A stretch of 64,000 nucleotides of DNA from Candidatus Aminicenantales bacterium (GCA_049515535.1 JBEKTZ010000002.1:27787-91786); one strand, 5' to 3'; shown: positions 2,285 through 18,723, counted from the first letter of the stretch. Translations and numbers: made by a program. The notes: generated from the sequence alone by a model not told the origin.

Positions 2285-4186
2285 GTGAAGGATATTTTCT
2301 GGCTCATCCCGTTTGGTCCGGCCATCAGCGCGCTGGTCCTCGTCCTTTTCGGTCACCGGCTTTCGAGAAAGGTCGTCTCCATCCAAGCTTGCGCGGCCGT
2401 TTTCTTTTCCTTTGCGGTTTCTGTCGTCTCATGTTTAGGACTTATCAATGCGAACCGCGCGGACTTCCCTCTCATCAAACATCTTTTTTCTTGGATCTCG
2501 GCAGGCTCCCTGAAGGCCGGTTTTTCCCTCCAATTCGACCCCCTATCGGCCGTCATGGTTCTGGTCGTGACCGGCGTGGGATTTTTGATCCATGTCTATT
2601 CCATCGGCTATATGTCCCGCGACAAAGGATATGCGCGCTATTTCGCCTGCCTGAACCTGTTCACGTTCGCCATGCTCCTCCTCGTTCTGGCTTCGAACAT
2701 GATCTTGATGTTCGTCGGATGGGAAGGCGTCGGCCTCTGTTCCTATTTGCTCATCGGGTTTTGGTTCGAAAAACCGGCCGCTGCGGCAGCCGGGAAAAAA
2801 GCGTTCATCGTCAACCGGATCGGAGATGCCGGCTTCATCCTGGGCGTGTTGTTCATCGTCCTGGTTGTCGGGAATTCCGAGTTTATGGCCATTAACGAAG
2901 CGATCGGCAACGGCGGCTTGGCCCGGGGGACGGCGACGGGGATCGCGATTCTGTTGTTTATCGGGGCGGCGGGGAAATCCGCCCAAATCCCACTTTATGT
3001 CTGGCTTCCGGACGCCATGGAAGGCCCCACGCCCGTCAGCGCGCTCATCCACGCCGCGACCATGGTCACGGCCGGCGTTTACATGGTCGCCAGGATGAAT
3101 TTGCTTTATGCGTTCTCGGGCACGGCCGGCCAGATCGTGGCCGTCGTCGGGGCCGTGACGGCCGTCTATGCGGCGACCATGGCCTTGACCCAGAATGACA
3201 TCAAGCGGGTTCTCGCCTATTCGACCATTTCCCAACTCGGATACATGTTCCTCGGATGCGGTGTGGGCGCCTACGCAGCCGGCATCTTTCATCTTTATAC
3301 CCACGCTTTCTTCAAAAGCCTTTTATTCCTCGCGGCCGGCAGCGTCATCCATTCCCTGTCCGGAGAACAGGATATGCGCAAAATGGGCGGTTTGAAAAAA
3401 TATCTGCCCAGGACGTATCCGGCTTTTCTCATCGGCGCCATCGCCATTGCCGGCGTCCCTTTTTTATCCGGCTTCTATTCCAAAGACGCGATCCTGACCC
3501 AGGCCTTCGCTCAGGGACATTACGTCCTTTGGGCGTTAGGGTTAGGCGCGGCCGTTTTGACGGCTTTTTACATGTTCCGGCTGATCTTCCTGACGTTTTA
3601 CGGAGAAGAAAGGCTGGACCCCGAGGCGAAACGACATCTCCATGAATCTCCAAGGATCATGACCCTTCCCCTGGCTATCCTGGCCTTTTTCTCGATCACC
3701 GCCGGCTACGTCGGACTTCCGGCGGTGCTGGGCGAAAAAGCCGATGTCTTTAAGCGTTTTTTGAATCCCGTCATCCGACCCGTCTCCGGAGGACATCTTG
3801 CCTCGGGCACGGAATGGCTCCTTATTTTGCTTTCGACAACGGCCGCTTTGCTCGGGATTGTCCTGGCCTATGCTCTTTACCTGAAAAACAAGCGAATTCC
3901 CCATGCTTTCGTCGCCCGCTTTCCCGGTCTGTACAAACTTCTCTATAACAAGTATTACGTGGATGAAATCTATGATGCGGTTGTCGTCAATCCCCTGGTC
4001 CGTTGCTCGGAAGGAATTTACGGCGGCTTCGACCTCAAGGTCATCGACGGAAGCCTCGACGGATCGGCCTCCGCCGCCGCGTTGGCGGGCAAAATCCTCG
4101 CCTATTTCCAAACGGGGTTATTAAAAGACTATGCTCTTGTCTTTCTTCTGGGCGTCGTGATTTTCATGGGAGTCCTTCTGTTTTAG
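2285..4186 (+). CDS. nuoL: NADH-quinone oxidoreductase subunit L
   Basis: GWEGVGLCSYLLIGFW, GKSAQIPLYVWLPDAMEGPTPVSALIHAATMV and AYSTISQLGYM motifs. Confidence 0.96.
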   Translation: MKDIFWLIPFGPAISALVLVLFGHRLSRKVVSIQACAAVFFSFAVSVVSCLGLINANRADFPLIKHLFSWISAGSLKAGFSLQFDPLSAVMVLVVTGVGFLIHVYSIGYMSRDKGYARYFACLNLFTFAMLLLVLASNMILMFVGWEGVGLCSYLLIGFWFEKPAAAAAGKKAFIVNRIGDAGFILGVLFIVLVVGNSEFMAINEAIGNGGLARGTATGIAILLFIGAAGKSAQIPLYVWLPDAMEGPTPVSALIHAATMVTAGVYMVARMNLLYAFSGTAGQIVAVVGAVTAVYAATMALTQNDIKRVLAYSTISQLGYMFLGCGVGAYAAGIFHLYTHAFFKSLLFLAAGSVIHSLSGEQDMRKMGGLKKYLPRTYPAFLIGAIAIAGVPFLSGFYSKDAILTQAFAQGHYVLWALGLGAAVLTAFYMFRLIFLTFYGEERLDPEAKRHLHESPRIMTLPLAILAFFSITAGYVGLPAVLGEKADVFKRFLNPVIRPVSGGHLASGTEWLLILLSTTAALLGIVLAYALYLKNKRIPHAFVARFPGLYKLLYNKYYVDEIYDAVVVNPLVRCSEGIYGGFDLKVIDGSLDGSASAAALAGKILAYFQTGLLKDYALVFLLGVVIFMGVLLF

Positions 4187-4188
4187 CC

Positions 4189-5745
4189 ATGAGCCAGCCG
4201 ATTCTCAGCCTGGTCATCTTTTTGCCCTTAGCCGCCGCCCTTCTCATGATCTTTCTGCCGAAAGACAACAAAAATCTGCTTTACGGCTTCGCCCTGGCCG
4301 TCACGGTCGTGACATTCGCCCTGTCGCTTTTTCTCTTTTTCGGATTCGACGTCCGCACGGGCGGCCCGCAGTTCGTGGAACAAGCGGCCTGGCTGGGCGA
4401 TGGCCTGCAATATCACGTCGGCATCGACGGCATCAGCCTCTTTCTCGTTTTGCTGACCACGTTCCTCATGCCTCTCGCGCTCATGTCCTCGTGGTCTTCG
4501 ATCCGCGATAAGATCAAGGAATATCTCGTTTTCATGCTCGTCCTCGAGACGGGCATCATCGGCGTTTTTGCCGCGCTCAATCTGTTCCTCTTCTACGTTT
4601 TCTGGGAAGCCATGCTCATCCCCATGTATTTTCTCATCGGCGTCTGGGGCGGCAAGCGCCGCGTCTATGCCACGACGAAATTCATTCTGTTCACGATGCT
4701 GGGAAGCCTTCTGATGCTCGTCGCGATTTTCGCTTTGTATTCTCATTTTCATGAAGCGACAGGCGCATATTCCTTGAATCTCTTTGATCTCTACAAAGTC
4801 CCGATCGATCCGAAGGTTCAGAGCTGGCTCTTTCTGGCCTTCGCTCTCGCCTTCGCCATCAAAGTGCCGATATTTCCTTTCCATACCTGGCTGCCCGACG
4901 CCCATGTCGAGGCCCCGACGGCGGGATCCGTCTTTCTGGCCGCGGTGCTCCTCAAGATGGGCGCCTACGGCTTTCTCCGATTCGCCATTCCTCTGTTCCC
5001 GAACGCCGTGGAGAAATTCCTTCCGATCCTGGCCGTTCTTTCCATCATCGGGATCATTTACGGCGGCTTGATGGCACTCGTTCAGAAAGACATCAAATCG
5101 CTGGTCGCCTACTCCAGCGTCAGCCATATGGGACTGATCATGTTGGCCCTTCTTTCGCTCAACGTCGAAGGCACGGTGGGTTCCGTTTTCCAGATGCTCA
5201 ACCACGGACTGAGCACCGGCGCGCTGTTCCTGATCGTAGGCATTTTGTATGAGCGGGCGCACTCCCGGCAGATCAAGGATTTTGGCGGAGTGAGTCGTCC
5301 CATGCCCGTCCTCTCCGTTTTTTTTCTGATCGCTATGCTTTCGTCAATGGGACTGCCGGGGCTGAACGGCTTTGTCGGCGAAATCACCTGCTTTTTCGGA
5401 ATTTTCACTGCAAACAAAGTTTACGCCGTCCTGGGCCTGACCACGGTCATCCTTACCGCGGCCTATCTCCTCTGGATGTTCCAGAGGGTCATGCAAGGGC
5501 CGGTCGCAAACGAAAGAATATCGTCTTTCAGGGACATGAACAAACGAGAGATCACGTATCTTATTCCCATCATCATCTTGATGTTCTGGATGGGCCTTTA
5601 TCCTCAGACATTTATAAGAAAAATTGAGCCTTCCGTCGTCCAATATATCAGCCTTATCAAGAATGACCGGAGGGTCATCGTTCATAAGGCGGCCGGGCTC
5701 CCGGTCAAATGGGGACTTCGGCAGAAGGACAACAAAGCCAGATGA
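4189..5745 (+). CDS. nuoM: NADH-quinone oxidoreductase subunit M
   Basis: ATG at 4189 (MSQPILS...); FWEAMLIPMYFLIG, KVPIFPFHTWLPDAHVEAPTAGS and AYSSVSHMG motifs. Confidence 0.95.
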   Translation: MSQPILSLVIFLPLAAALLMIFLPKDNKNLLYGFALAVTVVTFALSLFLFFGFDVRTGGPQFVEQAAWLGDGLQYHVGIDGISLFLVLLTTFLMPLALMSSWSSIRDKIKEYLVFMLVLETGIIGVFAALNLFLFYVFWEAMLIPMYFLIGVWGGKRRVYATTKFILFTMLGSLLMLVAIFALYSHFHEATGAYSLNLFDLYKVPIDPKVQSWLFLAFALAFAIKVPIFPFHTWLPDAHVEAPTAGSVFLAAVLLKMGAYGFLRFAIPLFPNAVEKFLPILAVLSIIGIIYGGLMALVQKDIKSLVAYSSVSHMGLIMLALLSLNVEGTVGSVFQMLNHGLSTGALFLIVGILYERAHSRQIKDFGGVSRPMPVLSVFFLIAMLSSMGLPGLNGFVGEITCFFGIFTANKVYAVLGLTTVILTAAYLLWMFQRVMQGPVANERISSFRDMNKREITYLIPIIILMFWMGLYPQTFIRKIEPSVVQYISLIKNDRRVIVHKAAGLPVKWGLRQKDNKAR

Positions 5746-7178
5746 ACGGATTTGCCGCGGCGGCTCCCCTTCTCGTCATCACCGGCGCCGCTCTGGCTGT
5801 CCTTCTCCTGGAAGCTTTTGTGAACAAGTCGAACAAGAATTATTTGGCCATTTTATCTCTGATTTTCCTCTCGATCTGCGCTCTCTTCTGCGCGCGCTCA
5901 TGGAACGCCGGCTTGGCTTATTTCAACGGGATGCTCCGCTTGGATAATCTGTCTCTGATCCTGATCGCGCTCTTCCTGATCACCACGGCCTTCGTCATTC
6001 TCATCGGCATGAAATATTTTTCGGCGCGGGCTCTCAATGGCGGCGAGTTCTACGGACTTCTTCTCCTGGCCCTTTCCGGACTCATTATCATGGTCACATC
6101 GCTGAATCTCATCGTCATTTTCCTGGGCCTCGAAGTCCTTTCGGTCGCCAGCTATGCGTTGGCCGGATTGAACCTTCGCGACAGCAAATCCGCGGAGGCT
6201 GCGATCAAATATTTCATGATGGGATGTTTCGCCGGAGCCTTTCTTGTGTTCGGGCTGGCCCTCGTCTTTGGCACTGTCCGTTCCATTGACATTCCGGATA
6301 TCATCGCCTTTCTCGGCGCGGCATCCGGCCCGCCCGTCCTTGGACTCATCGGCCTGGGACTGATCATCTCCGGATTCGCTTTTAAGATCGCGATCGTGCC
6401 CTTTCATATGTGGGCGCCGGACGTCTATGAGGGCGCTCCTACGCCTGTGACGACTTTTTTCGTCGTCGGCCCCAAAGCGGCGGGATTCGCCGTCCTTTTC
6501 CGGATGTTGGTCCCCCTCTGGAAAGAAAGCTCCAGGTCCGGTTCCATCTTCGATTTCCTTTGGGCTCTCTCCGCCCTGACGATGATCGTGGGAAGTCTGA
6601 TCGCCCTCCGGCAAAAGAACATCAAGCGATTGTTTGCTTATTCCAGCATCGTCCATTCGGGATATTTGCTGATTGCGATCCTCTCCGGCGATGGCACCGG
6701 CCTCGTTTTTTTCATGGCGGTCTATTTGTTCATGAGCGTGGGGGCTTTCGGCTCTCTCATTGCCCTAAGCTATAAAGACCGCGAATACGGCGATTTGAGC
6801 GATTTCGCCGGGATTGGCTTCAAATATCCGTGGATCGGCGCCCTTTTTACGGTCTTCCTCGTCTCCTTGGCTGGATTCCCTCCGACGGGCGGCTTCCTGG
6901 CGAAATTTTACATTTTCGTGGGGGCCGTTCGGCAAGGTCTGACGCCTCTCGTCCTCATCGGCGTGCTGGCCAGTTTGATTTCGGCTTATTACTATCTCCG
7001 GATCGTCGCTTATATGTATATGAGAGAACCGATAAACGACATCGAAATTGAAATGGAGAACCCGGCCCTCTTTTTAGTCCTTTTTCTTTGTCTGTTCGGG
7101 GTCCTTCAGCTCGGTCTATTCCCCGGCAATGTCCTGTACATCATTAAACAAGCGGTCGCTTCCCTCGTTGGCTTCTGA
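5742..7178 (+). CDS. nuoN: NADH-quinone oxidoreductase subunit N
   Basis: ATGA overlap with the nuoM stop; EAAIKYF, FKIAIVPFHMWAPDVYEGAPTPVT and GFPPTGGFLAKF motifs. Confidence 0.95.
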   Translation: MNGFAAAAPLLVITGAALAVLLLEAFVNKSNKNYLAILSLIFLSICALFCARSWNAGLAYFNGMLRLDNLSLILIALFLITTAFVILIGMKYFSARALNGGEFYGLLLLALSGLIIMVTSLNLIVIFLGLEVLSVASYALAGLNLRDSKSAEAAIKYFMMGCFAGAFLVFGLALVFGTVRSIDIPDIIAFLGAASGPPVLGLIGLGLIISGFAFKIAIVPFHMWAPDVYEGAPTPVTTFFVVGPKAAGFAVLFRMLVPLWKESSRSGSIFDFLWALSALTMIVGSLIALRQKNIKRLFAYSSIVHSGYLLIAILSGDGTGLVFFMAVYLFMSVGAFGSLIALSYKDREYGDLSDFAGIGFKYPWIGALFTVFLVSLAGFPPTGGFLAKFYIFVGAVRQGLTPLVLIGVLASLISAYYYLRIVAYMYMREPINDIEIEMENPALFLVLFLCLFGVLQLGLFPGNVLYIIKQAVASLVGF

Positions 7179-7187
7179 TTCGCATCC

Positions 7188-7796
7188 TCAAATATCCGAC
7201 GTCTTTCGCGGATTGAGGAAATCCGTCAAAAGCTCGCGGAGCAAACGGATCGGAAGTCCGACGACGTTGTCATAATCCCCTTCCAGTTTTCGAACCAAGG
7301 CATCTCCCGATTCCTGGATGGCATAGCTTCCAGCTTTATCCAGAAAATCGTTCGCATCAAGATATTTTTCGATGTCGGCCCGGCTCAACATTTTGAATGT
7401 GACCCAACTGGTGGCCTGCCCGGAAAGCATCCGATCTTGATCTTCCCGATAAAGAGCGACGGCCGTGACAACCCGATGTCTCTTCCTGGAAAGCCTTTCC
7501 AACATGGATTCGGCCTCCCGACGGCTTTTCGGCTTGCCGAAGATGTCCTCATCGCAACAGACGACGGTATCTGCGGCGATAATGAGCGAAGAAGGGTGTT
7601 CGGCGCCGACGGCTCTGGCCTTGGCAATCGCGGCCCGTCGGGCGAAGACGACCGGATCGCGGTCGCGAAAAAGATCTTCGTCCACCCGGCTTGGCACGAC
7701 TCTAAAATCGGGCACGATTTCCCTTAAAAGATCGCGTCTTCTGGGAGAAGCGGAGGCCAGGATGACGTCCAGCCTGTTTTTTTCCTTTGAATTCAA
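7188..7796 (-). CDS. maf: Maf family nucleoside triphosphate pyrophosphatase
   Basis: ILASASPRR, AADTVV, GKP, DKAGSYAIQ and NVVGLP motifs. Confidence 0.93.
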   Translation of the reverse strand: MNSKEKNRLDVILASASPRRRDLLREIVPDFRVVPSRVDEDLFRDRDPVVFARRAAIAKARAVGAEHPSSLIIAADTVVCCDEDIFGKPKSRREAESMLERLSRKRHRVVTAVALYREDQDRMLSGQATSWVTFKMLSRADIEKYLDANDFLDKAGSYAIQESGDALVRKLEGDYDNVVGLPIRLLRELLTDFLNPRKTSDI

Positions 7797-7834
7797 GCTA
7801 AGAACGTCCGAAACGCGAGCGCGCGGATTCCGTT

Positions 7835-8839
7835 TTAAAATTTCAAACCGGCAAAGATGGCCAGAACATTCGTCTTGGGTATGGAATCGGAGGGGACGGT
7901 GCCCTCATATCCGGCCGAGCTTTTCTGAATGCCGGCTAGGCCCATATGATAGCGGCCTTCGACGAATAATTTGACGCCGCCCATGGGCAGGCCGAAGCCG
8001 GCTCCGAAGACGAGACCGTAATCCAGTTGATTCAGATCTTTTTTGATATCTTCCGTCGCGGACTGGGGGGTCACACCGGTACCGGAAATAGAGTATGACG
8101 CTTTAGCTTGGACTACATAAGCCGCCTCGCCGCCTCCCATCAGATAGAAATCGGGGGCGCCGGCTTGTTTCAGGATGTGGATCTTGAGCATCACGGGAAC
8201 GCTTAATTCGTCGATGTTCATTTTAATGTCAAAATCGTAGCCCGAATCGGAACCTTGAAAACGGATGCCTTTGCGGATATAAAGCACGTCAATTTCAAAG
8301 CCGATTTGAGATCCCATCTCGAATCCTATGCCGCCGCCCAATCCGCTGATCGGCTTTTTAAACGAATCAAATTGCTCATATCCGGGTTGGGATTTGTACG
8401 TCATGGATGCCGAGGTCACCCCCCCCATGATCTTGAATCCGCCGAAGGATGCCGCCGAAGCCGACGAATACGATGGAGGAGGAGCCTGATACACGACGGG
8501 CGGCGGCTCCGTGGCTCGTTGAGGCTGAACCACGGGCACGGGGGGAGCGATCTCTTTCTTCTCCCCGCCGACGACATCGACGACGGAATTGTTGATAAAG
8601 CCGGATAGGCTTTTACCCGTATCATCGGTGATCGAGATCTCGTACCAATCTCCGATCTTTTGGCGTGATTCGAGAAGAGTCCCCTGGGGCAGCTGTTTGA
8701 TGACGGAGCTCGAAGCGTCCGGCTCGGACCTGACGTTGGCTGTCATGACTTTCACTTTCAGAACGTAGCTTTGTGCTGCGCTCAAACCTGGAACTAAGAT
8801 CAAGGCAAGCCCGAGTCCCATAATCCACGCTCTTTTCAT
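7835..8839 (-). CDS. Secreted SH3 domain + Pro-rich linker + outer-membrane beta-barrel protein
   Basis: Probable start MKRAWIMGLG with a signal peptide; ANVRSEPD...WYEI (bacterial SH3); PPVPVVQP linker; alternating beta strands ending in terminal Phe (FAGLKF). Confidence 0.75.
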   Translation of the reverse strand: MKRAWIMGLGLALILVPGLSAAQSYVLKVKVMTANVRSEPDASSSVIKQLPQGTLLESRQKIGDWYEISITDDTGKSLSGFINNSVVDVVGGEKKEIAPPVPVVQPQRATEPPPVVYQAPPPSYSSASAASFGGFKIMGGVTSASMTYKSQPGYEQFDSFKKPISGLGGGIGFEMGSQIGFEIDVLYIRKGIRFQGSDSGYDFDIKMNIDELSVPVMLKIHILKQAGAPDFYLMGGGEAAYVVQAKASYSISGTGVTPQSATEDIKKDLNQLDYGLVFGAGFGLPMGGVKLFVEGRYHMGLAGIQKSSAGYEGTVPSDSIPKTNVLAIFAGLKF

Positions 8840-8934
8840 GGAAACCTCCGCACTTTCGTATTCAATCTCTCGTATGTATGACATGATTTGGCGGGAATTT
8901 CAATATCTTTTTCGCGCTTTATTTTGAATCTGCG

Positions 8935-10305
8935 ATGGCCGTCATTTTCTTTCTATTGAAATCCGGCGAGTCCCGCTCTACAATCAGCCTGTCTTCTCTT
9001 CGAGGAGGCGCCCTGGAACAACTTGAACATGATGCCACGCCGAAAAACCCAATCATGCGAATGACCTATCGTTTTCCCGATATTCCCCAGATGAAGGACA
9101 TCCGATTGAAGTTGGAGAATAAGGGAAAAAGACTCCGGTTTTCCATTTCCGGCCGCAAATCGCTTATATACGTCCCTCTCATCTGGTATTTCATAAAATG
9201 GCTCAGCCGCTTGGGAATCATCCTCAGACGGAACGGCGCCAATGTCTATTCCCTATACATTCCCCCGATCCCGAGCGAAGCTGACAATCGACACCTCCAA
9301 ATCTTCTTGAATGCCTGGCTGTTCAAAAAAAAGGTTCCCTTCGCCGTGACGATTGCCGTCACGGACGAATGCCAGCTGAATTGTGCCCATTGCAGCGTGC
9401 TTGAGAACGCCGCCGGGAGAAGGCCGATGGCGCTCGCGGAGATCAAGCAGGCGATTGCCGAATCGATTTCTCTCGGCGTGACGAATATCACTTTCACCGG
9501 CGGAGAACCGCTTATGCGGGCCGATTTGGAGGAGATCATCGCCGCCGTCCCCGCCGATAAGGCCGTCTCTCTCGTTTTTACCAATGCGGTGGGATTGGAT
9601 GCCGCAAGAGCGGCGGCGATCAGCAAAGCGGGCGCGTTTGGAGTCCAGATCAGTCTGGATTCTCCCGAGCCGTCGGAACACGACCGATTGCGCGGCCGGG
9701 AAGGCTTATTCGATTTGGTGAAAAAGGGAGTTGAAAACGCCCTTGGCGAGGGCTTAATGGTCGGCCTTTCGACTTATGCTTCCAACCCATCCGTCGCGGA
9801 AAAGAAACTCAGTCGCCTCGCGGAACTTGCCGCGGCGTGGGGCGCGCATGAAGTCAGCGTCTTCGACCTGATTCCCACCGGACGTCTGTTGCGGAAGACT
9901 GAAGTCATGCTGACCGCGGCGAGCCGCCGCTCATTGCTCCTCGAAGCCAGACGGCTCAACCGGCGCTTTGGGGGCCGACCGAGGATCATCACCCAGTGCT
10001 GGACAAATCACGGCCGGGGATTCGCTCGTTTCATAGGCTGCCTGGCCGGTCACTACCAGTTTCATATCTCCGCGAGCGGCGAATTCATGCCCTGCGACTT
10101 CACGCCTCTGTCCTTCGGGAATATCCGTGACGAAACGGTCGCCGGCCTTTGGGAGAAGCTCCTCCGGCATCCGGCCTATAAGGGAAGATGTTACGCCTGC
10201 AGGATGCAGGATCCATTGTTCCGCAAGACGTATATCGATTCCATTCCCCAGGGAGCGGACATGCCCTACTTCATCGACAGGCTGTCGTCCCCGAATTGCG
10301 GCTAA
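8935..10305 (+). CDS. Radical SAM protein with SPASM/Twitch domain (start uncertain, may be about 9013-9061)
   Basis: CQLNCAHC (CxxxCxxC), FTGGEPLMR, and C-terminal GCLAG...PCDF...GNI...CYAC cysteines. Confidence 0.88.
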   Translation: MAVIFFLLKSGESRSTISLSSLRGGALEQLEHDATPKNPIMRMTYRFPDIPQMKDIRLKLENKGKRLRFSISGRKSLIYVPLIWYFIKWLSRLGIILRRNGANVYSLYIPPIPSEADNRHLQIFLNAWLFKKKVPFAVTIAVTDECQLNCAHCSVLENAAGRRPMALAEIKQAIAESISLGVTNITFTGGEPLMRADLEEIIAAVPADKAVSLVFTNAVGLDAARAAAISKAGAFGVQISLDSPEPSEHDRLRGREGLFDLVKKGVENALGEGLMVGLSTYASNPSVAEKKLSRLAELAAAWGAHEVSVFDLIPTGRLLRKTEVMLTAASRRSLLLEARRLNRRFGGRPRIITQCWTNHGRGFARFIGCLAGHYQFHISASGEFMPCDFTPLSFGNIRDETVAGLWEKLLRHPAYKGRCYACRMQDPLFRKTYIDSIPQGADMPYFIDRLSSPNCG

Positions 10306-11162
10306 GGCTCCGAGCCAGAATCGCCCGAGCCGATTTTTCCGTAAGGCGCTTTTTCCGCTTCCCCGCCCGGCCGATCTTTTTCAGCTAGCCATTTGCGGAG
10401 CTTTTGAGCGGCGTGTCTTTGATAGGCCTTGCCGATCACGGGAGAGAGCCTGTTGAGAAACGACGTGATCCTGAAAAGCCGCGAGGGATAGATGCGCTTC
10501 CGGTCCTTTTCGACTCCCCTGATGATGGCCTTGGCTACGACGTCCGAGTCCTGGATGGGCCAGGGTATCGGGACGTTTTCGCCGGCCGCTTTGAAGAAAC
10601 CCGTCCGGGTGGCGATGGGATAGACCATGGAAATTCGAGCCCCGTGGCCCATCTCCAAGCGGTAGCCTTCCACGAACCTTTCCAGGGCGGCTTTGGTGGC
10701 TGAATAGAGGGCGTAGCCCGGCATGGCCAGGGTGCACATGCCCGAGGCCGTGATGACAAAATGAAAGCTCCGGCCGCCGGAAATTTCGATCATCTTCTCC
10801 AGAGAATAAAAGACCGAGAACGTATTGAGGTCGAATATGGATCGGATATGGGTCCAATCCGATCTTTCTAGCTTTTCATAATAGGGGAAACCCGCGTTGG
10901 CGATGAAGATATCCACACCGCCCCATTTTCTCATTACCTCCTCGAATAAGCGGTCAACATTTTCCTTCCGGGAAAGGTCGCAGGACAGGGCCTCCATCTT
11001 AGCCCTGCGATCATTCATCGACAGGATGTTCTTCCTGATCAAGTCCCCGCGGCGGGCCACCCCGAGAACAGTCGCCTCTCGGCCGGCCAGCTGCTCCAAA
11101 AGGGACTTGCCGATGCCCGACGAGGCCCCGGTGACGATGATCCTCCGGCCTTCGATCTTCAT
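10302..11162 (-). CDS. Classical short-chain dehydrogenase/reductase
   Basis: TGASSGIG, ANAG and YSATK; ATG at 11162 overlaps the stop of the upstream gene. Confidence 0.9.
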   Translation of the reverse strand: MKIEGRRIIVTGASSGIGKSLLEQLAGREATVLGVARRGDLIRKNILSMNDRRAKMEALSCDLSRKENVDRLFEEVMRKWGGVDIFIANAGFPYYEKLERSDWTHIRSIFDLNTFSVFYSLEKMIEISGGRSFHFVITASGMCTLAMPGYALYSATKAALERFVEGYRLEMGHGARISMVYPIATRTGFFKAAGENVPIPWPIQDSDVVAKAIIRGVEKDRKRIYPSRLFRITSFLNRLSPVIGKAYQRHAAQKLRKWLAEKDRPGGEAEKAPYGKIGSGDSGSEP

Positions 11163-12178
11163 TTCGACTCCCTGACGTCCTTCCGCCCTGGAGGCCAAGG
11201 GGCCAGCCCGCGGCTGCAGAGCCAGTCAACGGCATGCCTGAAGGTTTCGCCGAGGGGGCGGGACGTGTGGTCCAATTCCTTTCTCGCTTTCGAATCATCA
11301 TAGAACCAGTAGTGGCTCATGATGAAGGCCTCCGCTTCGTCCAGGAAGGGGTCCTTGGAGAAGGCTTGGAGGATCCGGCCGGCCGCGCGTCCTATCCCCT
11401 GCGATATGACCCAACGAGGCGGCGGATAGCCGGTCACGTTCGACAGGATTTCGAATAACTCCGCATAATCTAAGTTGGCCCCGCCCAGGATATAGCGTTC
11501 ACCCAGCCGTCCCTTATCCATCGCCAGGACAAGCCCGCGTGCGGCGTCTCTTACGTCCAGGGCGTTCTGCCCGCCCCGGATATAAGCCGGGACTCGGCGC
11601 CGGAGGAAGGCGAGCAGCAAACGGGAGCTTGAGATGTGGATGTCGCCGGGGCCGTAACAGTAACAGGGATAGGCACGGACTATCGGCAAGCCCGCCTCCA
11701 GGCAATCCTGAACATAGAGTTCTGTTCGGCGCTTAGCCCGAAAATATTCTATCCGGCAGTCGTCGAGGTCATAAACGACATCTTCCCCGACCGGGGTGGG
11801 ACTGCCGCCGCCCAGGCCGAAGATGCTGCCGAGAAAAACGATTCTATCCGGACGCTCGACGCGGCAGGCCTCAAAAAGGTTGCGGGTTATGCTGTAGTTG
11901 AGATTCCAGATTAGTCGGCGGTCTTTGGGGGCCGTGGAGATGAAACCGGCCAAATGGAAAAGGGCATCGACTCCTTCGAGCGCCTGGGGAAGCGATCCAG
12001 GGTCAAGGAGATCGCCTTCGAAGACCTCAAGGCCAGCTCGGCCTTCAAGGCCTGAGTCCCGCAGGAGCCGTACGTTCCTGGCGAAGGCCCGCACTCTTTC
12101 CCCTCGTTCGAGAAGGAGGCGGACCGCATGGGATCCGATGAATCCGGTGGCTCCGGTTACCAAGTTCAGGTTAGGCAT
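11159..12178 (-). CDS. Extended SDR, NAD-dependent epimerase/dehydratase (dihydroflavonol reductase/HpnA-like)
   Basis: VTGATGFIGS, FHLAG, YFRAK (YxxxK), YGPGD and DVRDAARG...GRLGERYILGG motifs. Confidence 0.87.
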   Translation of the reverse strand: MPNLNLVTGATGFIGSHAVRLLLERGERVRAFARNVRLLRDSGLEGRAGLEVFEGDLLDPGSLPQALEGVDALFHLAGFISTAPKDRRLIWNLNYSITRNLFEACRVERPDRIVFLGSIFGLGGGSPTPVGEDVVYDLDDCRIEYFRAKRRTELYVQDCLEAGLPIVRAYPCYCYGPGDIHISSSRLLLAFLRRRVPAYIRGGQNALDVRDAARGLVLAMDKGRLGERYILGGANLDYAELFEILSNVTGYPPPRWVISQGIGRAAGRILQAFSKDPFLDEAEAFIMSHYWFYDDSKARKELDHTSRPLGETFRHAVDWLCSRGLAPWPPGRKDVRESK

Positions 12179-12373
12179 GTCGTCGATCGCTTAAAAGACG
12201 CCTCCTGGATGATCGCATCGCTCCTGACACGGCTGGGGAAACGTATCATACGATCATCTTCCAGTCAACGCGGTTCCAGGCTGCTCGCGGCTCCGGCCTC
12301 AGTTCGGGCTAAATAGAGTATGTCGCCATATTTTTGATAGAATTGTGCTTTCACCGGACGACCACAAATGCGC

Positions 12374-12545
12374 CTAAAAGACAATAAACCCCCTTCCCCC
12401 ATCAAAACCACTTATCCTAAAAATACTCCGCCCGTTCTTCGGCCGCCATCAGGGCGACCTGCTCGGAGACGCCTGACGGCGACAAACACGTGCTTGAGGT
12501 GATCGATGATGTGCGGTCCACGGCCTGATAATCGGTTATGAAGGC
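12374..12545 (-). pseudogene. Frameshifted 3' remnant of an IS91-like (HUH/Y2) transposase plus downstream element sequence
   Basis: Reads AFITDYQAVDR / IIDHLKHVFVA / EQVALMAAEERAEYF* across frameshifts. Shares its C-terminus and the downstream CTAAAAGACAATA motif with the remnant at 14494-15094. Confidence 0.6.
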
Positions 12546-12696
12546 CTTGATTTTAGTTTTAGAACTGCCTAAAATTCCTATGAAGCTAAAAACGAATTTC
12601 TTATAAGTTATAAAAGAAATCGATGTCATATTTTAAAGGCTGTCAATTAAGTAACTTCAAAGTAGAATCAACCTGCAATTTTTTAAATTTCACATC

Positions 12697-14244
12697 ATGA
12701 GTCACAAATCTTCTCCAGAAAACAAGAAGAATCCTGGGATCCCAATTGTGCTTACCGCTTCCCGGGTCGAGATGAGCGACTTCGACCTTGACCCATTTCT
12801 TGCCTTTGGCGCAGGCCTTCCGCTCGGTTTCATTCCCAAATCCGTGTTGAGAAAAAGCATTTACCCACCGTTAGAGGAGAATGAGGACGGGACAGTCAAG
12901 TTTGCCCCATATGGATTAAGGAAGGTTGAGGCGTTACTTATGAAAGAGTTCGGGCAGGAAAATGTTGTTACCGTCCATCCTTCCCGGTTGGATCAGTTCA
13001 TTGGACCACGAACCAATGTCATCGGCATCACAAGTATGGATCCTTTGGGCCAAGGTTTTGTTAGCAGGACTTTATCCGGCATTATGGGCCTACACGGCAA
13101 GCCAACCACACGGATGGAGTTTGAAGCTCTCCTCTTTAGTGATATTTTAAAGAAGAGCGGGGCCCGGATTCTGGTAGGAGGATCCGGTGCATGGCAACTT
13201 GTGGAGCGAGGTTTAAGTGATTTTTGCAGGTTCGATACTGTTATTGTGGGGGAAGCCGAAAGGGCAGTCCTGGATGTGTTCAAGAGAGCTTTCAACGGCC
13301 AGAATATAGAAAGGGTAATCCAGATGCCATTCCCAAACATTGAACAAATCCCGACTATTAATAACGCCTCAATCTACGGCACGGTCGAAATCACCAGGGG
13401 ATGTGACCGGGGATGTCACTTCTGTTCACCAACCATGCGGAAATCCATCTCCTTTCCTATTGAACACATCATGGAAGAAGTCAGCCTTAACGCCAGCCTC
13501 GGGTCAAAAATGATTATCCTTCAGACAGATGACCTGTTTCTCTATCAGAGCAATCCTGATTTCAGACCCAACCGCCGAGCCGTTGTTGATCTTATCCAAA
13601 GGGTGGCTAAAACCGATGGAGTGAAGTATTGCCAAATTGCCCATATGTCTCTTCCTCCTGCGATTTTAGACCGGGAAATAGTCAGAGAGATAGGCCCGAT
13701 CCTCGCCGAAAAGTCAACATGGGAATACCAGGGGAAACGGTGTGCTTCTGTGGAAATAGGGATAGAAACAGGCAGCATCAGGTTGGTGAGGAAGTACATG
13801 CATGGAAAATCCTTGCCCTTTTCCCCAGACGACTGGCCAGATATCATCGTCCAGGCAATAAGCATTCTAAATGACTGCCAAATAAATCCCCTGGCTACAT
13901 TGGTGTTGGGACTACCCGGAGAAACAGAGGAGGATATCCATCAGACCCTCAAGCTTCTTGACCGCCTCAAGAACGCTAAGCTCTTCTATGTCCCGCTTCT
14001 CTTTGTCTCCGAGGAAGATACTGTACTGGATGGTTTCGAACATATGAATATCAAGAGCCTAAACAGGCTTCATTGGGAGATCATGGCAACTTGTTGGAGG
14101 CAAAATATTGAGCGCTGGGAGCCTGCCCTCTCACTTTTGGTCAGAATGGTTTGTGTTTTGTCTTGCAGGATACGAACGCGAGCGCTTTTGTCGATGTACG
14201 CCATAAGTAAAAGTTTAGAAAGGCATGGCGGAAAAAGAAGTTGA
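12697..14244 (+). CDS. B12-binding-like radical SAM protein, archaeal Grs/Gms/Gmm-like family
   Basis: IVLTAS..EMSDF, APYGLRKVEALL, VIGITSMDPLG, VGGSGAWQ, GEAE, VEITRGCDRGCHFCSP (CxxxCxxC), GIETGS and GLPGETEED. More AT-rich than its flanks. Confidence 0.8.
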   Translation: MSHKSSPENKKNPGIPIVLTASRVEMSDFDLDPFLAFGAGLPLGFIPKSVLRKSIYPPLEENEDGTVKFAPYGLRKVEALLMKEFGQENVVTVHPSRLDQFIGPRTNVIGITSMDPLGQGFVSRTLSGIMGLHGKPTTRMEFEALLFSDILKKSGARILVGGSGAWQLVERGLSDFCRFDTVIVGEAERAVLDVFKRAFNGQNIERVIQMPFPNIEQIPTINNASIYGTVEITRGCDRGCHFCSPTMRKSISFPIEHIMEEVSLNASLGSKMIILQTDDLFLYQSNPDFRPNRRAVVDLIQRVAKTDGVKYCQIAHMSLPPAILDREIVREIGPILAEKSTWEYQGKRCASVEIGIETGSIRLVRKYMHGKSLPFSPDDWPDIIVQAISILNDCQINPLATLVLGLPGETEEDIHQTLKLLDRLKNAKLFYVPLLFVSEEDTVLDGFEHMNIKSLNRLHWEIMATCWRQNIERWEPALSLLVRMVCVLSCRIRTRALLSMYAISKSLERHGGKRS

Positions 14245-14493
14245 TAGATGTTGAATTTCCGTGAGCGGCGCTAAGGCGCCGCCGGCCAAATCGATCTGGC
14301 CGGCAGGGACATCGGCTTCGCGGGCATTGATACGAAGGAATTTCCTTTTTTCGCGTTGTGGTGAATTCCCGCTCCGGACAATGAATCTCCCCTCCTAACC
14401 ATAACGGAAGTATATCATCGGCCGGGCGGCGCTATCAAATACCGCGAAAAGCGTACCCGAAGTGCATATTGGGAAAAAAACTCGCCACACCGG

Positions 14494-15094
14494 CTAAAAG
14501 ACAATAGACTTCCGCTCCCCCCTGATCACAAAATACTCAAAAATATTCCCCGCTCTCCTCGGCCAGCCGGAGGGCGAAGGAAACAAGGCTCGCCTTCTTG
14601 ACCTTTCCCCGGTGGGCGTTGGCATAGAGGCCGTAGTAGCGGACCATCACCTGCCCCTTGTCGGGGATATGGGATGTCGCACGGGCGATAAACTCCAGAT
14701 AATCCATCACCTCCCGCTCTGTGCCCTTCTCACCATGCCGATAACCGACTTTGCCCTCCTGCTCCAGGAAGGAGAGGAGCGGCCGGATTATGTATTTGCC
14801 CACCCGCTCGGCCTCCGGCTTCGTTTTGGCCCTCACCAGGCTGTGGACGTTGAAGCCGGTGTAAGGCCAAGAGAGAATGCGCTCGGCCCATTCCGGGCTG
14901 AGAAGTTCCCGGCCGACGAGAAACGACAGGACCTCCCGGGCGAAGATCTCCGCCAGCCGTGAGTCGTCCATCCGCGGGATCTGATGGAAGACACCCGCCT
15001 CGTCCGTTCCTCCTTCAGTCACCAGGAAATGGAGGTGCGGGTGAAGATTGATCCGGTTCCCGAAGGTCTGGATGGCCGCGATGATCCCCGGCGT
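14494..15094 (-). mobile_element. Truncated IS91-like rolling-circle transposase remnant
   Basis: In-frame TPGIIAAIQTFGNRINLHPHLHFLVTEGG (HUH motif), GFNVHS, YIIRP and HIPDKGQVMVRYYGLY. It lacks the N-terminus, has an internal deletion, and ends AEESGEYF* at 14537. Confidence 0.8.
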
Positions 15095-15115
15095 GCTCCC
15101 AGCCTAGCCGGTCTT

Positions 15116-18100
15116 TTACCGATTCGTCTGAGGGGCGGCCGGCGGCGGCATCGGCCGAAGCGCTGAGAGCCCGCTCCCGGCGATCGATTTGTTGAAAGTG
15201 GGGACGTCCTTGTCCATCAACACCCGATATTGCGCTTGAACGTCCTGGATCTGTTTCTCCAGGTCATCGACAAGCCCAATCGATGTCTTGGTCGGACCGT
15301 AATCGGCGCTGCCGGCCGTATCTCCGCCGCCCGTTCCGATGACCTGGCTCACCCACATTAGGTTAAGGTAGATCTTGTAGGACTGGACGAAGTACTTATC
15401 GTCGCTGAGGGCCTCCGATCGGGTAATGAGCTGATCTCGAACGGTCAGCATCTTCTTGTCCATATCGTCCACAGTTTTAAGCAGCGCTTTCTTTCCGCCC
15501 GGCGCGAAGAGCGTCTTGCGGGCGTCTTCGAGCTGTTTCCGCATCCACTCGATCTGGTTGGTCATATCGGACACGGCGTTGATATCGTCGCGGACGCGGA
15601 TCTGCAGATTCACCAAATTCCGGATGTCCGTCTCCGAACCGCTGTTGTTGGGTGGAAGAAGGATCTCGATCGGTTGGACGTACGTCTCGCCGTCCACAGT
15701 GAGGCGGGCGATGTACGCGCCGGGAGCGGCGATCGGGCCTTGGCCTTGGGAAACGCCCCAGTGAGTTATAGGACGCGTCTGCGCGTTCTGGAATCGCGGC
15801 TCTTCCCATATGCGGGGATTCTCGGGAGGCGTTGTCCGGAGCGCGACCAGGCGCGGCGGATCATGACGCATGTCCCAAGATGTCCGGTTGATCCCGGCGC
15901 GGGCTCCCGTCACGGGCAGTTTGCGGATGACGGTTCCGTTTCCGTCGAGGATTTCGAGCTGCATCGGGCTCTTGGGAGCGGCCTTCAGCGCAAAGTTCAG
16001 AAGAGCGCGTCCGCCGCGGACGAGCCGGTAGGCCGGGCGCGGCTTGAACAATTTCGCGGCCGCTTCCCCGTCCATGGCGCCTTGCTCGAGGGCCGAGATG
16101 TCTTCCATAATATAGATTCCGCGGCCGTAAGTGGATACAACCAGGTCTTGCGCCTGTTTTTGGACGACGATCCATGAGACGGGCGCGGGAGGCAGTCCTT
16201 CCTTCAGCGGCTTCCAGGTCGCGCCGTCATCGAGCGTATAGTGGAGCGCGTTGCCGGTCCCGGCGAAAAGCATGCCCTTCCGGTTCGGGTTCTCCGCGAT
16301 GACGCGGGCGTAGGCCAGGGTGCCTTTGGGCAGGTTGCCGGTGATCTTGGTCCACGTCTGGCCGAAATCCGTGGTCTTGTAAAGATACGGGTCGCGGTTG
16401 TCCATCAAATGAAAATCGACGGCGATGTAGGCCTTGCCGGCGTCGAAGCTCGACGGTTCGATCTTGGAAACGACACCCCACGCGGGCAAGCCTTTGATGT
16501 TGGCCGTGACGTCGTTCCATTTGCCGCCGCCGTCGTTCGTATACCAGACCTTGCCGTCGTTGGTCCCGGCCCAGATGAGGCCCTTCTGGATCGGCGACGG
16601 CGCGATCGAAAAAACGACTTCGCCGTAGAATTGGCCGAGGTTATCGCCGACGATCCCGCCCGAAGAAACGATGAACCGCGGATCCTGCGTCGAGAGGTCC
16701 GGGCTGATGACGGACCAGCTCGAACCGCCGTCGGCGGTCTTGAAAATGACCTGGGCGCCGTAATAGACGGTGTTGTGGTCAAAGGGGTCGATCGCCAAAG
16801 GCGGCGTCCAGTGGGCCCGCCATTTGATGGTATTCGGCGCCGAATCGAGCGTCCGGAGCCAGGGGCTCACCGAGCGCGCGAGCTTGGTCCTGAAATCATA
16901 GCGGGTCACTTCGTTGCCGTAGCAGGTCGCCCAGACGATGTCGGAGTCCGTCGGGTCCGGGATCGTAAAGCCGGATTCGCAGCCGCCGATGCCGTGGTCC
17001 CATGCCCCGCCGCCGCCTCCGCGCATCGCGGTGCCGGCAGCGTTCGCCCCGGCCTCGGGCGTCGTGCTGAGCCCCCGCATCGTGCCGTCGTCCTGCATGT
17101 TACTGTAAATGTGATAGGGAACATCGTTGTCCAAGGCGACGTGGTACATCTGGCCGATGGGCAGCGTGACGCGATGGGATGTTTTTCCGTGGTCGTTGGT
17201 TACGAACATGCCGCCGTCATCGGTGACGATGATCCTGTCGGCGTTCGTCGGGTCGATCCATATGTCATGGGTGTCGCCGCCCCAGGGCAGAGTGCGGAAC
17301 GACTTGCCCCCGTCGGTCGATTGGTGGAAACTGCTGTTCGCCACCAGGACTTCATCCGGGTTGGACGGCGAAATGCCGAGACGAATGTAATAGCCGGCGC
17401 GGCCGATCAGCGCCCGCTGCCAGCTCCCGACCTTCCAGTTCTCGCCTCCATCGTCCGAGCGCCAGAGCGATCCCTGGTCGGCGGTCTGAATGAGAGCATA
17501 GACGCGCTTGGAATCCTTGGCCGCGATCGCGACATCGATTTTGCCGACGGGAGATTTCGGCAGGCCGTGGCCTTCGATGCGCTTCCAAGTCGTGCCGCCG
17601 TCGATCGATTTCCAGATGCCGCTGTCGGGGCCGCCGCTGAACATGGCGTAAGTGTGCATTTCGGCCTGCCACATTCCGGCGAACAGGACGTTCGGGTCGT
17701 TCGGATCCATGGCCAGGCCGGAACATCCCGAGTTCGGGCTGACGAAGAGAACGCGCTGCCAGGTTTTGCCGCCGTCCATCGTCCGATAAACGCCGCGCTC
17801 CTGCTGCGGGCCGGTCAGACGGCCGAGCGCCGCGGCGAAAACGATGTCCGGGTTCGTGGGATGGATGATGATCCGTCCGATGCGGCCGGTCTCGTCGAGG
17901 CCCAGGTGAGCCCAGGTTTGGCCGGCGTCGGCGGACTTGTAGATGCCGTCGCCCATCATGTCCACGTCGCGGATGGCCCACGCTTCGCCCGTCCCGGCCC
18001 AGATGATATTGTGGTTGGACGAAGACAAGGCCAGGGCGCCTATAGCGGCCACAGGCTGGTCGTCGAAGATCGGCCGCCACGTGTTTCCGCCGTCGCTGGA

Positions 18101-18337
18101 CTTGAAGATGCCGCCCGAAGCGGCGCCGGCGTAGTAAGTGCTGAGCTCGCCCGGAACTCCCGTGGCGGCCGAGATGCGATTGCCGACCGCCGGTCCCATG
18201 AAGCGGAACCGCAGCGGCTCCTGCGGGGGACCGCCGAACTGTCCGCCGCGCTGCTGGGCAAACGACAGGGCAAACCAGAGTCCGAGGCCAAGAATGGCCA
18301 GGAAAAGAACCTTGAAATTGCGATCGAATGCTTTCAT
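15116..18337 (-). CDS. Secreted VPS10/BNR(Asp-box)-repeat beta-propeller protein (glycosyl hydrolase-like)
   Basis: Signal peptide; many S/TxDGGxTW Asp-boxes; GTGE, QMYHV and GGCESG motifs; C-terminal FlgD-like and coiled region. Start is 18343 or 18337 after GAGGAGG. Confidence 0.85.
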   Translation of the reverse strand: MKAFDRNFKVLFLAILGLGLWFALSFAQQRGGQFGGPPQEPLRFRFMGPAVGNRISAATGVPGELSTYYAGAASGGIFKSSDGGNTWRPIFDDQPVAAIGALALSSSNHNIIWAGTGEAWAIRDVDMMGDGIYKSADAGQTWAHLGLDETGRIGRIIIHPTNPDIVFAAALGRLTGPQQERGVYRTMDGGKTWQRVLFVSPNSGCSGLAMDPNDPNVLFAGMWQAEMHTYAMFSGGPDSGIWKSIDGGTTWKRIEGHGLPKSPVGKIDVAIAAKDSKRVYALIQTADQGSLWRSDDGGENWKVGSWQRALIGRAGYYIRLGISPSNPDEVLVANSSFHQSTDGGKSFRTLPWGGDTHDIWIDPTNADRIIVTDDGGMFVTNDHGKTSHRVTLPIGQMYHVALDNDVPYHIYSNMQDDGTMRGLSTTPEAGANAAGTAMRGGGGGAWDHGIGGCESGFTIPDPTDSDIVWATCYGNEVTRYDFRTKLARSVSPWLRTLDSAPNTIKWRAHWTPPLAIDPFDHNTVYYGAQVIFKTADGGSSWSVISPDLSTQDPRFIVSSGGIVGDNLGQFYGEVVFSIAPSPIQKGLIWAGTNDGKVWYTNDGGGKWNDVTANIKGLPAWGVVSKIEPSSFDAGKAYIAVDFHLMDNRDPYLYKTTDFGQTWTKITGNLPKGTLAYARVIAENPNRKGMLFAGTGNALHYTLDDGATWKPLKEGLPPAPVSWIVVQKQAQDLVVSTYGRGIYIMEDISALEQGAMDGEAAAKLFKPRPAYRLVRGGRALLNFALKAAPKSPMQLEILDGNGTVIRKLPVTGARAGINRTSWDMRHDPPRLVALRTTPPENPRIWEEPRFQNAQTRPITHWGVSQGQGPIAAPGAYIARLTVDGETYVQPIEILLPPNNSGSETDIRNLVNLQIRVRDDINAVSDMTNQIEWMRKQLEDARKTLFAPGGKKALLKTVDDMDKKMLTVRDQLITRSEALSDDKYFVQSYKIYLNLMWVSQVIGTGGGDTAGSADYGPTKTSIGLVDDLEKQIQDVQAQYRVLMDKDVPTFNKSIAGSGLSALRPMPPPAAPQTNR

Positions 18338-18723
18338 GCTCATCCTCCTCTTTCCAGCTCATATCCGATATTAATTTTCCTAAGAAAAAAAAACAATGGT
18401 CAGCGGATAACGTCCATAACAATAAATCATGTCCATGAAAAAGTGAAGCCTTTATAAAAATCCTCAGAGGCGGATCATGGACTTGAAGCACGATGCAGCA
18501 AGGAGTTCCATCGGCCGTTCCCACCTCGGAAGAAGACGTAATAATTGGGCCGTTTTGGCGTCAGGAATAGGGTCTTTTCCTAAATCCCATGTAAAAAATG
18601 ATTTACGCTGAACAGGTTAGAACATACGGGCGAAGATCGTCCTGACGCCGAGTTCGGAGTGCGGATGGATCGTGCTCCGGAGGAGGCGCTTGAGCGATTT
18701 CTCGGGCGCACTCGCGGCACCCG

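Follow-up and report, generated by a model that had tools for sequence, protein, structure and literature searches.

A recently acquired Grs-family radical SAM gene in a peat Aminicenantes bacterium, probably ring-closing on lipid tails, and its candidate rSAM/SPASM partner

The stretch of DNA analyzed here, 64,000 nucleotides of a Candidatus Aminicenantales genome (GCA_049515535.1 JBEKTZ010000002.1:27787-91786) and hereafter called the window, carries at positions 12697-14244 on the plus strand a gene for a radical S-adenosylmethionine (rSAM) enzyme resembling Grs, the glycerol dialkyl glycerol tetraether (GDGT) ring synthase. The gene is an intact open reading frame (ORF) of 515 aa with an ATG start and a TGA stop. 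A reading made from the sequence alone (the sequence-only reading) had singled out this ORF by a set of motifs, every one of which is present in the protein: IVLTAS at residue 17, EMS at 25, APYGLRKVEA at 70, MDPLG at 114, GGSGAWQ at 161, and VEITRGCDRGCHFCSPT at 230, which places the CX3CX2C motif at C236/C240/C243. Those three are the only invariant cysteines in an alignment of 60 sequences, C466 being nearly invariant, and the protein retains every residue listed from that alignment as invariant (19) or nearly invariant (55). The suspicion that its C-terminal tail might be eroded is not borne out, since the protein can be aligned with its homologues over the conserved core and up to its final residues; beyond that point the homologues differ only in variable tails.

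The gene has a low G+C content (0.478; z = -2.6 relative to 2173 long ORFs of the genome) and a third-position G+C content of 0.523, within the lowest 7% of the genome, while the genes that flank it are host-like in composition. The two 60-nt lines from which a low G+C content had originally been suggested have exact counts (27/60 at 12901 and 35/60 at 11941). The AT-rich leader upstream of the gene (G+C content 0.33-0.38 over 12547-12668) contains two sigma70-like matches from a consensus scan that gave six sites where 2.6 would be expected, these being consensus matches only, and a direct reading of the leader revealed no clear Shine-Dalgarno sequence.

Pfam searches with the Grs-like protein returned PF04055 only, without PF02310, while NCBIfam produced only sub-threshold matches to B12-type rSAM and MiaB-like models; neither library indicated a SPASM domain or AhbD/NirJ matches. 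The AlphaFold2 (AF2) model (predicted local distance difference test score, pLDDT, of 91.8) comprises an N-terminal Rossmann-like domain, an rSAM barrel and C-terminal helices, and Foldseek aligned it over its full length with the cobalamin-dependent rSAM enzymes MgmA, OxsB, TsrM, CysS, TokK and AprD4. GrsA and GrsB, the characterized GDGT ring synthases of Sulfolobus acidocaldarius (Saci_1585 and Saci_0240), are described as possessing a Rossmann-like N-terminal domain, a partial TIM barrel with a single CX3CX2C cluster, a C-terminal helix and no auxiliary Fe-S cluster (PMC13459092), and model and alignment together reveal this same architecture in the window protein.

Three other assignments were rejected. 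The protein is not Gms, given the lack of a SPASM domain and of AhbD/NirJ matches, and it is neither Ted nor of the Gmm/Ted type: the ~620-aa proteins encoded beside its archaeal orthologues are the PF02310 family, a domain that it lacks, and it is only 22% identical (E 7e-7) to such a Ted/Gmm-type neighbour in archaeal locus L006. Gmm, Ted and the GDGT methylases are MoeK5-like, with about 31% identity among members. They are likewise rSAM enzymes acting on lipid tails and are often encoded next to the archaeal orthologues of the window protein, but they are true B12-binding enzymes (preprint 10.1101/2025.10.20.683597), while Gms is described as an AhbD-like rSAM/SPASM core preceded by an N-terminal COG4001 extension of ~100 aa (PMC11214058). 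Grs, Gms and Gmm consequently do not form the single motif family that the sequence-only reading had assumed.

Full-length homologues are 51-64% identical to the Grs-like protein and archaeal where named, and archaeal loci represent 79 of the best 80 loci kept from a scan of genome contigs, all of which belong to metagenome-assembled genomes (MAGs). A grs-ted-hgs gene arrangement has been described in archaea (preprint 10.1101/2025.10.20.683597), and in it, with ted and hgs as neighbours, the grs position is taken by archaeal orthologues 51-57% identical to the window protein. The order, in which the orthologue is followed by a PF02310+PF04055 protein of ~620 aa and then by a gene for ~340-385 aa that adjoins or overlaps the preceding one, was found at nine loci with an intact triplet and at L139, whose ted-type gene is broken into two ORFs; at 11 loci the orthologue is paired with a B12-rSAM gene. 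The model of the third triplet protein has AttH (2ICH, Z 11.4) as its best match among 48,161 chains, with kievitone hydratase at Z 6.9; the match is confined to residues 211-341, the confident C-terminal domain of a model whose overall mean pLDDT is 49, and Pfam gave no AttH signal for this gene even at E<=10. Furthermore, the orthologue is the sole member of the superfamily in one Bathyarchaeota, one Thermoplasmata and one Hadarchaeia genome.

Other archaeal homologues occur in different surroundings. Hadarchaeia loci L027 and L028 (at about 2800-11000) contain a compact cluster, resembling published gms-grs-gmm clusters, of a 452-aa B12-rSAM gene, a Grs-like gene and a gene for a 489-aa SPASM rSAM protein; the first product is Gmm-like (32-33% identical to the Ted-type protein) and the last is Gms-like, with an N-terminal extension. 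At L010, L011, L013 and L014, from the Thermoproteota/Brockarchaeota group, the Grs-like gene lies beside genes for a beta-mannosidase-like protein of glycoside hydrolase family 2 (~825 aa), a 372-aa rSAM protein and a sugar epimerase, a context unlike that of the loci of anaerobic methanotrophic archaea (ANME) and Bathyarchaeota.

In a tree of 69 sequences (IQ-TREE), the window protein falls in a clade of twelve sequences (support 100, stem 0.40) whose members carry no taxon labels. This clade is sister (98) to sequences of Nitrososphaeria, ANME-1 and Thermoplasmatota, is grouped with eight named archaeal sequences at 97-98%, and is nested, together with its sisters, among sequences of Brockarchaeota, Hadarchaeota, Bathyarchaeota and Asgard archaea. 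The host phylum also possesses a Grs-like lineage of its own: 46 of 400 other genomes sampled from the phylum encode a full-length homologue, 29-40% identical to the window protein, although none of these belongs to the class, order or family of the host. Eleven sequences of this lineage form their own clade (100) apart from the twelve-sequence clade, and constraining the two clades together costs 388 log-likelihood units (approximately unbiased test, p = 0.028), for a grouping that was named after the tree had been seen. The separate clades and the cost of the constraint therefore indicate that the copy in the window represents an independent acquisition. A further apparent bacterial homologue, L051, on a 6.8-kb contig of 'Candidatus Acidoferrum' sp., was discarded: its near-identity to Bathyarchaeota sequence L039 and a contig G+C content of 0.35-0.41 make it likely that the contig is archaeal and was mis-binned into a bacterial MAG. 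Taken together, predicted fold, phylogeny and orthologue synteny place the product of 12697-14244 as a putative member of the Grs family, and so narrow a subfamily question that had been considered undecidable from the sequence.

The host is an anaerobic Aminicenantes bacterium from peat, Aminicenantes being a class of Acidobacteriota in GTDB. Its genome (G000) comprises 3.45 Mb in 32 contigs and is 94% complete with 2.3% contamination. The Grs-like gene, present as a single copy, is located 40 kb into a contig of 367 kb, between bacterial genes; the flanking genes are of a diderm bacterium and encode complex I subunits, an outer-membrane beta-barrel protein, a sigma54 activator and PFOR, and all seven NuoL matches with organism names are to Candidatus Aminicenantes or Aminicenantales (71-76% identity). 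The window also encodes two large Sortilin/VPS10-BNR repeat proteins, at 15116-18343 (1075 aa) and 45506-48268 (920 aa). Elsewhere in the genome, ten further B12-type rSAM genes (Table 1) yielded sub-threshold matches only, to HpnJ, BchE, PhpK and 'lipid biosynthesis B12-binding' models, an unassigned group that is large for a genome of 3.45 Mb in which no hopene cyclase was found.

Table 1. Coordinates of the Grs-like gene, its neighbours and further B12-type rSAM genes (window positions unless a contig, C, is given)
Feature	Coordinates	Strand	Basis
Grs-like (GDGT ring synthase family) rSAM gene	12697-14244	+	ORF, motifs, PF04055, AF2 model, homologues
AT-rich leader with two sigma70-like matches (12547-12575, 12640-12668)	12547-12668	+	Consensus scan
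rSAM/SPASM partner, AhbD/NirJ2-like core with ~95-130 aa N-terminal extension	8935-10305	+	PF04055 + PF13186
Left IS91-type 3' end remnant, ~87 nt (element end and last transposase codons)	12371-12457	-	Repeat match
Right IS91-family fragment: end repeat 14491-14520 and transposase C-terminus 14537-15022	14491-15022	-	PF04986, NF033538
SDR oxidoreductase, within the variable segment	10302-11198	-	PF00106 E 1.2e-31
HpnA/SdmB-like NAD-dependent epimerase/reductase, accessory gene	11159-12178	-	TIGR03466 214 bits, below the 368 cut-off
Variable 4858-bp segment: SDR, HpnA-like and Grs-like genes, IS91 pieces	10248-15105		Joint in an X2 contig
Further B12-type rSAM genes 1-5	C7:86271-87710, C1:59078-60559, C9:90474-91907, C7:4997-6391, C7:21813-23318
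Further B12-type rSAM genes 6-10	C7:38839-40704, C1:316698-318221, C6:49541-51019, C4:12304-13671, C3:80762-82177

The Grs-like gene lies between remnants of IS91-type insertion sequences (IS), which had correctly been noted on both sides. The left remnant matches 14491-14577 at 69 of 79 aligned bases, a 30-nt direct repeat included, and a depth spike with loose ends at 12419/12481 in four runs shows that it belongs to a multi-copy element. The right remnant encodes a 161-aa C-terminal transposase fragment that matches PF04986 (E 2e-9) and, over profile positions 160-318 of 356, NF033538 (E 1.3e-9; 37.6 bits against a cut-off of 125). Judging from what is left of them, neither remnant would be able to transpose as it stands. 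Both are located within a segment that varies between strains: in X2, an independent peat run, one contig joins position 10247 directly to 15106 at a depth of 17.8, compared with about 104 for the full form and 86 for the side, the form lacking the 4858 bp being known from this one contig. The full form is covered in X2 at 98-99% identity (106x over 10162-12531 and 102x over 12547-14553), and the only breaks between X2 contigs fall at the repeated IS remnant near 12.53 kb. A first metagenome scan with a single protein as query gave no match; a cluster 99% identical to the Grs-like protein is found on 13 contigs, the longest of 380 kb. No RNA dataset was among the sequencing runs listed as containing the region.

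The Grs-like gene was not found in any of the 60 relatives searched, 26 from the host's own family and 34 from its order, and the HpnA-like gene of the same segment was not found in 30 relatives at E<=1e-40. Given this absence from relatives, the deviating G+C content, the flanking IS91 remnants, the X2 contig without the segment and the placement in the tree, the Grs-like gene is a recent, strain-variable acquisition between two IS91-type remnants. The broader proposal of the sequence-only reading, an archaeal-type rSAM enzyme modifying lipid tails that was acquired horizontally by an anaerobic bacterium, is upheld. Two further observations concern the same surroundings. A 161-bp stretch at 14264-14426, just 3' of the Grs-like stop codon, is skipped by contigs of two independent runs (X2 at 102x and X3 at 4x) and represents an indel polymorphism between strains. 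In the freshwater-sediment run X6, the IS91-type fragment 14442-15092 reaches about 660-1140x where neighbouring sequence is at about 6x, and related elements are therefore abundant in that community.

Located 2.4 kb upstream of the Grs-like gene is a gene for an rSAM/SPASM protein (8935-10305; probable true start at M40, position 9052), the best family matches of which are NirJ2, TIGR04053 and AhbD. The only other member of the twelve-sequence clade with readable flanks, L126, encodes a Grs-like protein 59% identical to that of the window, and its neighbours are an NAD_binding_4 reductase, an rSAM/SPASM protein and an acyl-AMP ligase. The two SPASM proteins are 51% identical over 413 residues, the N-terminal extension included (E 1e-152). 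They belong to a family of ~410-aa proteins whose named members are bacterial (Thermodesulfobacteriota, Deltaproteobacteria, Dehalococcoidales, Binatia and Bacillota), and among relatives of the host the gene is patchily distributed (15 of 60 at E<=1e-30, two of these above 50% identity), with no further synteny seen on the short contigs of those relatives. The SPASM protein is not a close relative of Tes (E 2e-4 to 7TOL, the solved GDGT/MAS structure that was used to verify Tes). Its recurrence beside the nearest relative with readable flanks suggests that it and the Grs-like protein may constitute a Tes-independent pair.

Tes itself is widespread in the host phylum. PF23545, its zinc-ribbon marker, was found in 245 of the 400 genomes; of the 46 encoding the Grs-like lineage of the phylum itself, 45 have it (242 of 397 and 44 of 45, respectively, without the unpublished genomes G112, with both a Grs-like gene and Tes, and G087 and G215, with Tes), counts that refer to related genomes and not to independent samples. 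The tally lends independent support to the view that bacterial Grs-type enzymes act on Tes products. In the phylum the marker often occurs in ORFs of 640-830 aa, longer than archaeal Tes. None of 16 sampled genomes from the order of the host contains it. The 489-aa SPASM protein of L027, considered as a possible Tes, was ruled out (E 1.4e-12).

Comparison with known systems sets the window gene apart in several respects. Relative to GrsA and GrsB, to which it is likened by architecture and not by sequence, the protein has archaeal orthologues that sit in lipid-modification gene clusters, a bacterial host, a genome without Tes and, presumably, a non-isoprenoid substrate. Relative to the Grs lineage of the host phylum, it belongs to a class in which that lineage was not found and has no accompanying Tes. 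Bacterial copies of this archaeal family have previously been published, with four hot-spring MAGs of Acidobacteriae each encoding a single grs homologue that is nested in archaeal sequences and ascribed to archaea-to-bacteria transfer (preprint 10.1101/2022.08.15.504015), and with GrsA/B homologues of Solibacter usitatus proposed to form the rings of branched GDGTs (brGDGTs) (PMC10087280); the present gene adds one more. GrsA homologues are also reported for Planctomycetota (94 of 684 MAGs) and for Cloacimonadota (7 of 42), those Cloacimonadota being given there as without Tes, for which the authors suggest non-homologous replacement (PMC11868695), while grs is part of mss/gms clusters in Aerophobetes according to a figure legend (preprint 10.1101/2023.10.20.563219, Fig. 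S13). These are likewise Grs-type genes in anaerobic bacteria, in Cloacimonadota also without Tes and in Aerophobetes clustered with other rSAM lipid genes; compared by description only, the window gene differs in its phylum and in having a partner from an unassigned SPASM family. That partner has an AhbD/NirJ-type rSAM/SPASM core with an N-terminal extension, a layout also described for Gms, and, by description only, its family resembles Mss in its anaerobe-rich bacterial range.

On this basis, the product of this intact, recently acquired Grs-family gene rather likely closes rings on lipid tails, with a substrate that likely comes from the SPASM partner. As in GrsA and GrsB, 5'-deoxyadenosyl radicals would abstract hydrogen at a methyl branch as well as at a methylene in the chain of a long lipid tail, whereupon the Grs-like enzyme would close a cyclopentane ring on that tail. 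Because the genome lacks Tes, the substrate would most likely be made or cross-linked by the upstream rSAM/SPASM enzyme, and the acyl-AMP ligase and fatty-acyl-reductase-type protein at L126 point to fatty-acid-derived, not isoprenoid, lipids. It is a speculative and, taken by itself, doubtful extension that the two enzymes form a Tes-independent module of anaerobic bacteria, in which the SPASM enzyme would join or cross-link fatty-acid tails and the Grs-like enzyme would close rings on them.

Several results weigh against this interpretation. PF23545, which matches exactly the three Tes-bearing control archaea, has no match in the host genome, and with a verified Tes as query (E 6.6e-152 to 7TOL) the best match there (E 3.2e-6) is noise from the rSAM core. 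Searches of this 94%-complete genome found no Ger domain, GGGPS or hopene cyclase, and NCBIfam, run on 20 of its 33 rSAM ORFs, named none as Tes or Mss, the other 13 all being shorter than 365 aa; no known substrate route (Tes, Ger, GGGPS or hopene cyclase) was thus recognizable in the genome. The points that the sequence-only reading had itself named as decisive accordingly fell both ways, with a full-length protein within the Grs-type family on one side and a genome without Tes, Ger domain or GGGPS on the other. The pairing with the SPASM gene was read directly in two contigs only; a third case consists of equal contig sizes (P0002 and P0290, 30,369 bp), which are a hint of co-occurrence only, and a similar case (P0003 and P0368, 1856 bp) was dismissed since L125 has no room for a second gene. 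Moreover, the SPASM gene has a host-like G+C content and lies outside the variable segment, and its adjacency here could therefore be secondary. Its product and an archaeal Gms-like candidate share 28% identity, while values of about 45% have been given for genuine bacterial Gms (preprint 10.1101/2023.10.20.563219). No X2 contig bridges 12531-12547. The assignment to Grs rests on synteny, distribution and fold, and to our knowledge ring formation has been demonstrated for Sulfolobales enzymes only. Published searches for Grs have applied E<=1e-40, at least 20% identity and at least 70% coverage to GrsA/GrsB (preprint 10.1101/2022.08.15.504015).

The lack of a recognizable substrate route would be explained if the gene were an idle passenger, a recent arrival with IS91 debris that does nothing and is too young to have decayed, and its unameliorated G+C content, strain-variable segment and lack of a clear Shine-Dalgarno sequence are in keeping with this. 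Such a fate is nevertheless unlikely in view of the intact ORF with all of its listed invariant and nearly invariant residues, the occurrence of a 98-99% identical gene at the full depth of the organism in an independent peat study, and the conserved SPASM partner nearby. An enzyme of the same family could also methylate, desaturate or cross-link lipid tails without forming rings, since chemistry can differ among homologous B12-type lipid rSAM enzymes: Ted, which is methylase-like, desaturates (preprint 10.1101/2025.10.20.683597). The long stem of the clade and a partner and substrate that differ from the archaeal ones would fit such a switch, which we nonetheless regard as quite unlikely, because the archaeal orthologues in the grs slot are close in sequence and because Ted and Gmm belong to another, distant family.

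Many pairs of SPASM and B12-type rSAM enzymes tailor secondary metabolites or peptides. Among solved structures, the SPASM partner is best matched by the peptide maturase SkfB, and the genome holds the ten further B12-type rSAM genes, so that the pair might act on a secondary metabolite or on a substrate akin to ribosomally synthesized and post-translationally modified peptides and not on a membrane lipid. This is improbable, as the best family matches of the partner fall in the group from which Gms arose (PMC11214058) and the L126 pair is flanked by an acyl-AMP ligase and an NAD_binding_4 reductase. Finally, a 32-contig assembly with some contamination, and contigs of independent runs that break at the IS remnant near 12.53 kb, raise the question of whether assembly or binning attached a piece of archaeal DNA to a bacterial contig; the position of the gene deep within a long contig between bacterial genes, the uniform depth of 102-106x on both sides in an independent run, and the near-identical cluster on 13 contigs make such an artefact exceedingly improbable.

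Ring closure on lipid tails by a recently acquired Grs-family enzyme thus remains the preferred interpretation. We know of no experimental demonstration of a bacterial cyclase of branched tetraethers, for which Grs homologues are the published candidates; the question that the sequence-only reading raised in calling this enzyme poorly defined is a real one, even if candidates for it were already in print. To these the locus adds a host lineage that the literature searched does not link with GDGTs, a mobile, strain-variable copy from peat and a candidate partner that might account for the supply of a substrate in bacteria without Tes. A literature search found no paper linking Aminicenantes with GDGT, supplements, which may list such links, being outside that search. 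The number of rings in branched tetraethers is used to reconstruct past soil and peat pH, and peat is a setting in which the brGDGT cyclization index serves as a pH proxy. The recurrence of the SPASM partner combined with the absence of Tes is the part most worth testing: the two-enzyme module, if true, would be a second way, genetically, of making branched membrane-spanning lipids that bear rings, with Aminicenantes as a so far unlisted producer of them in peat.

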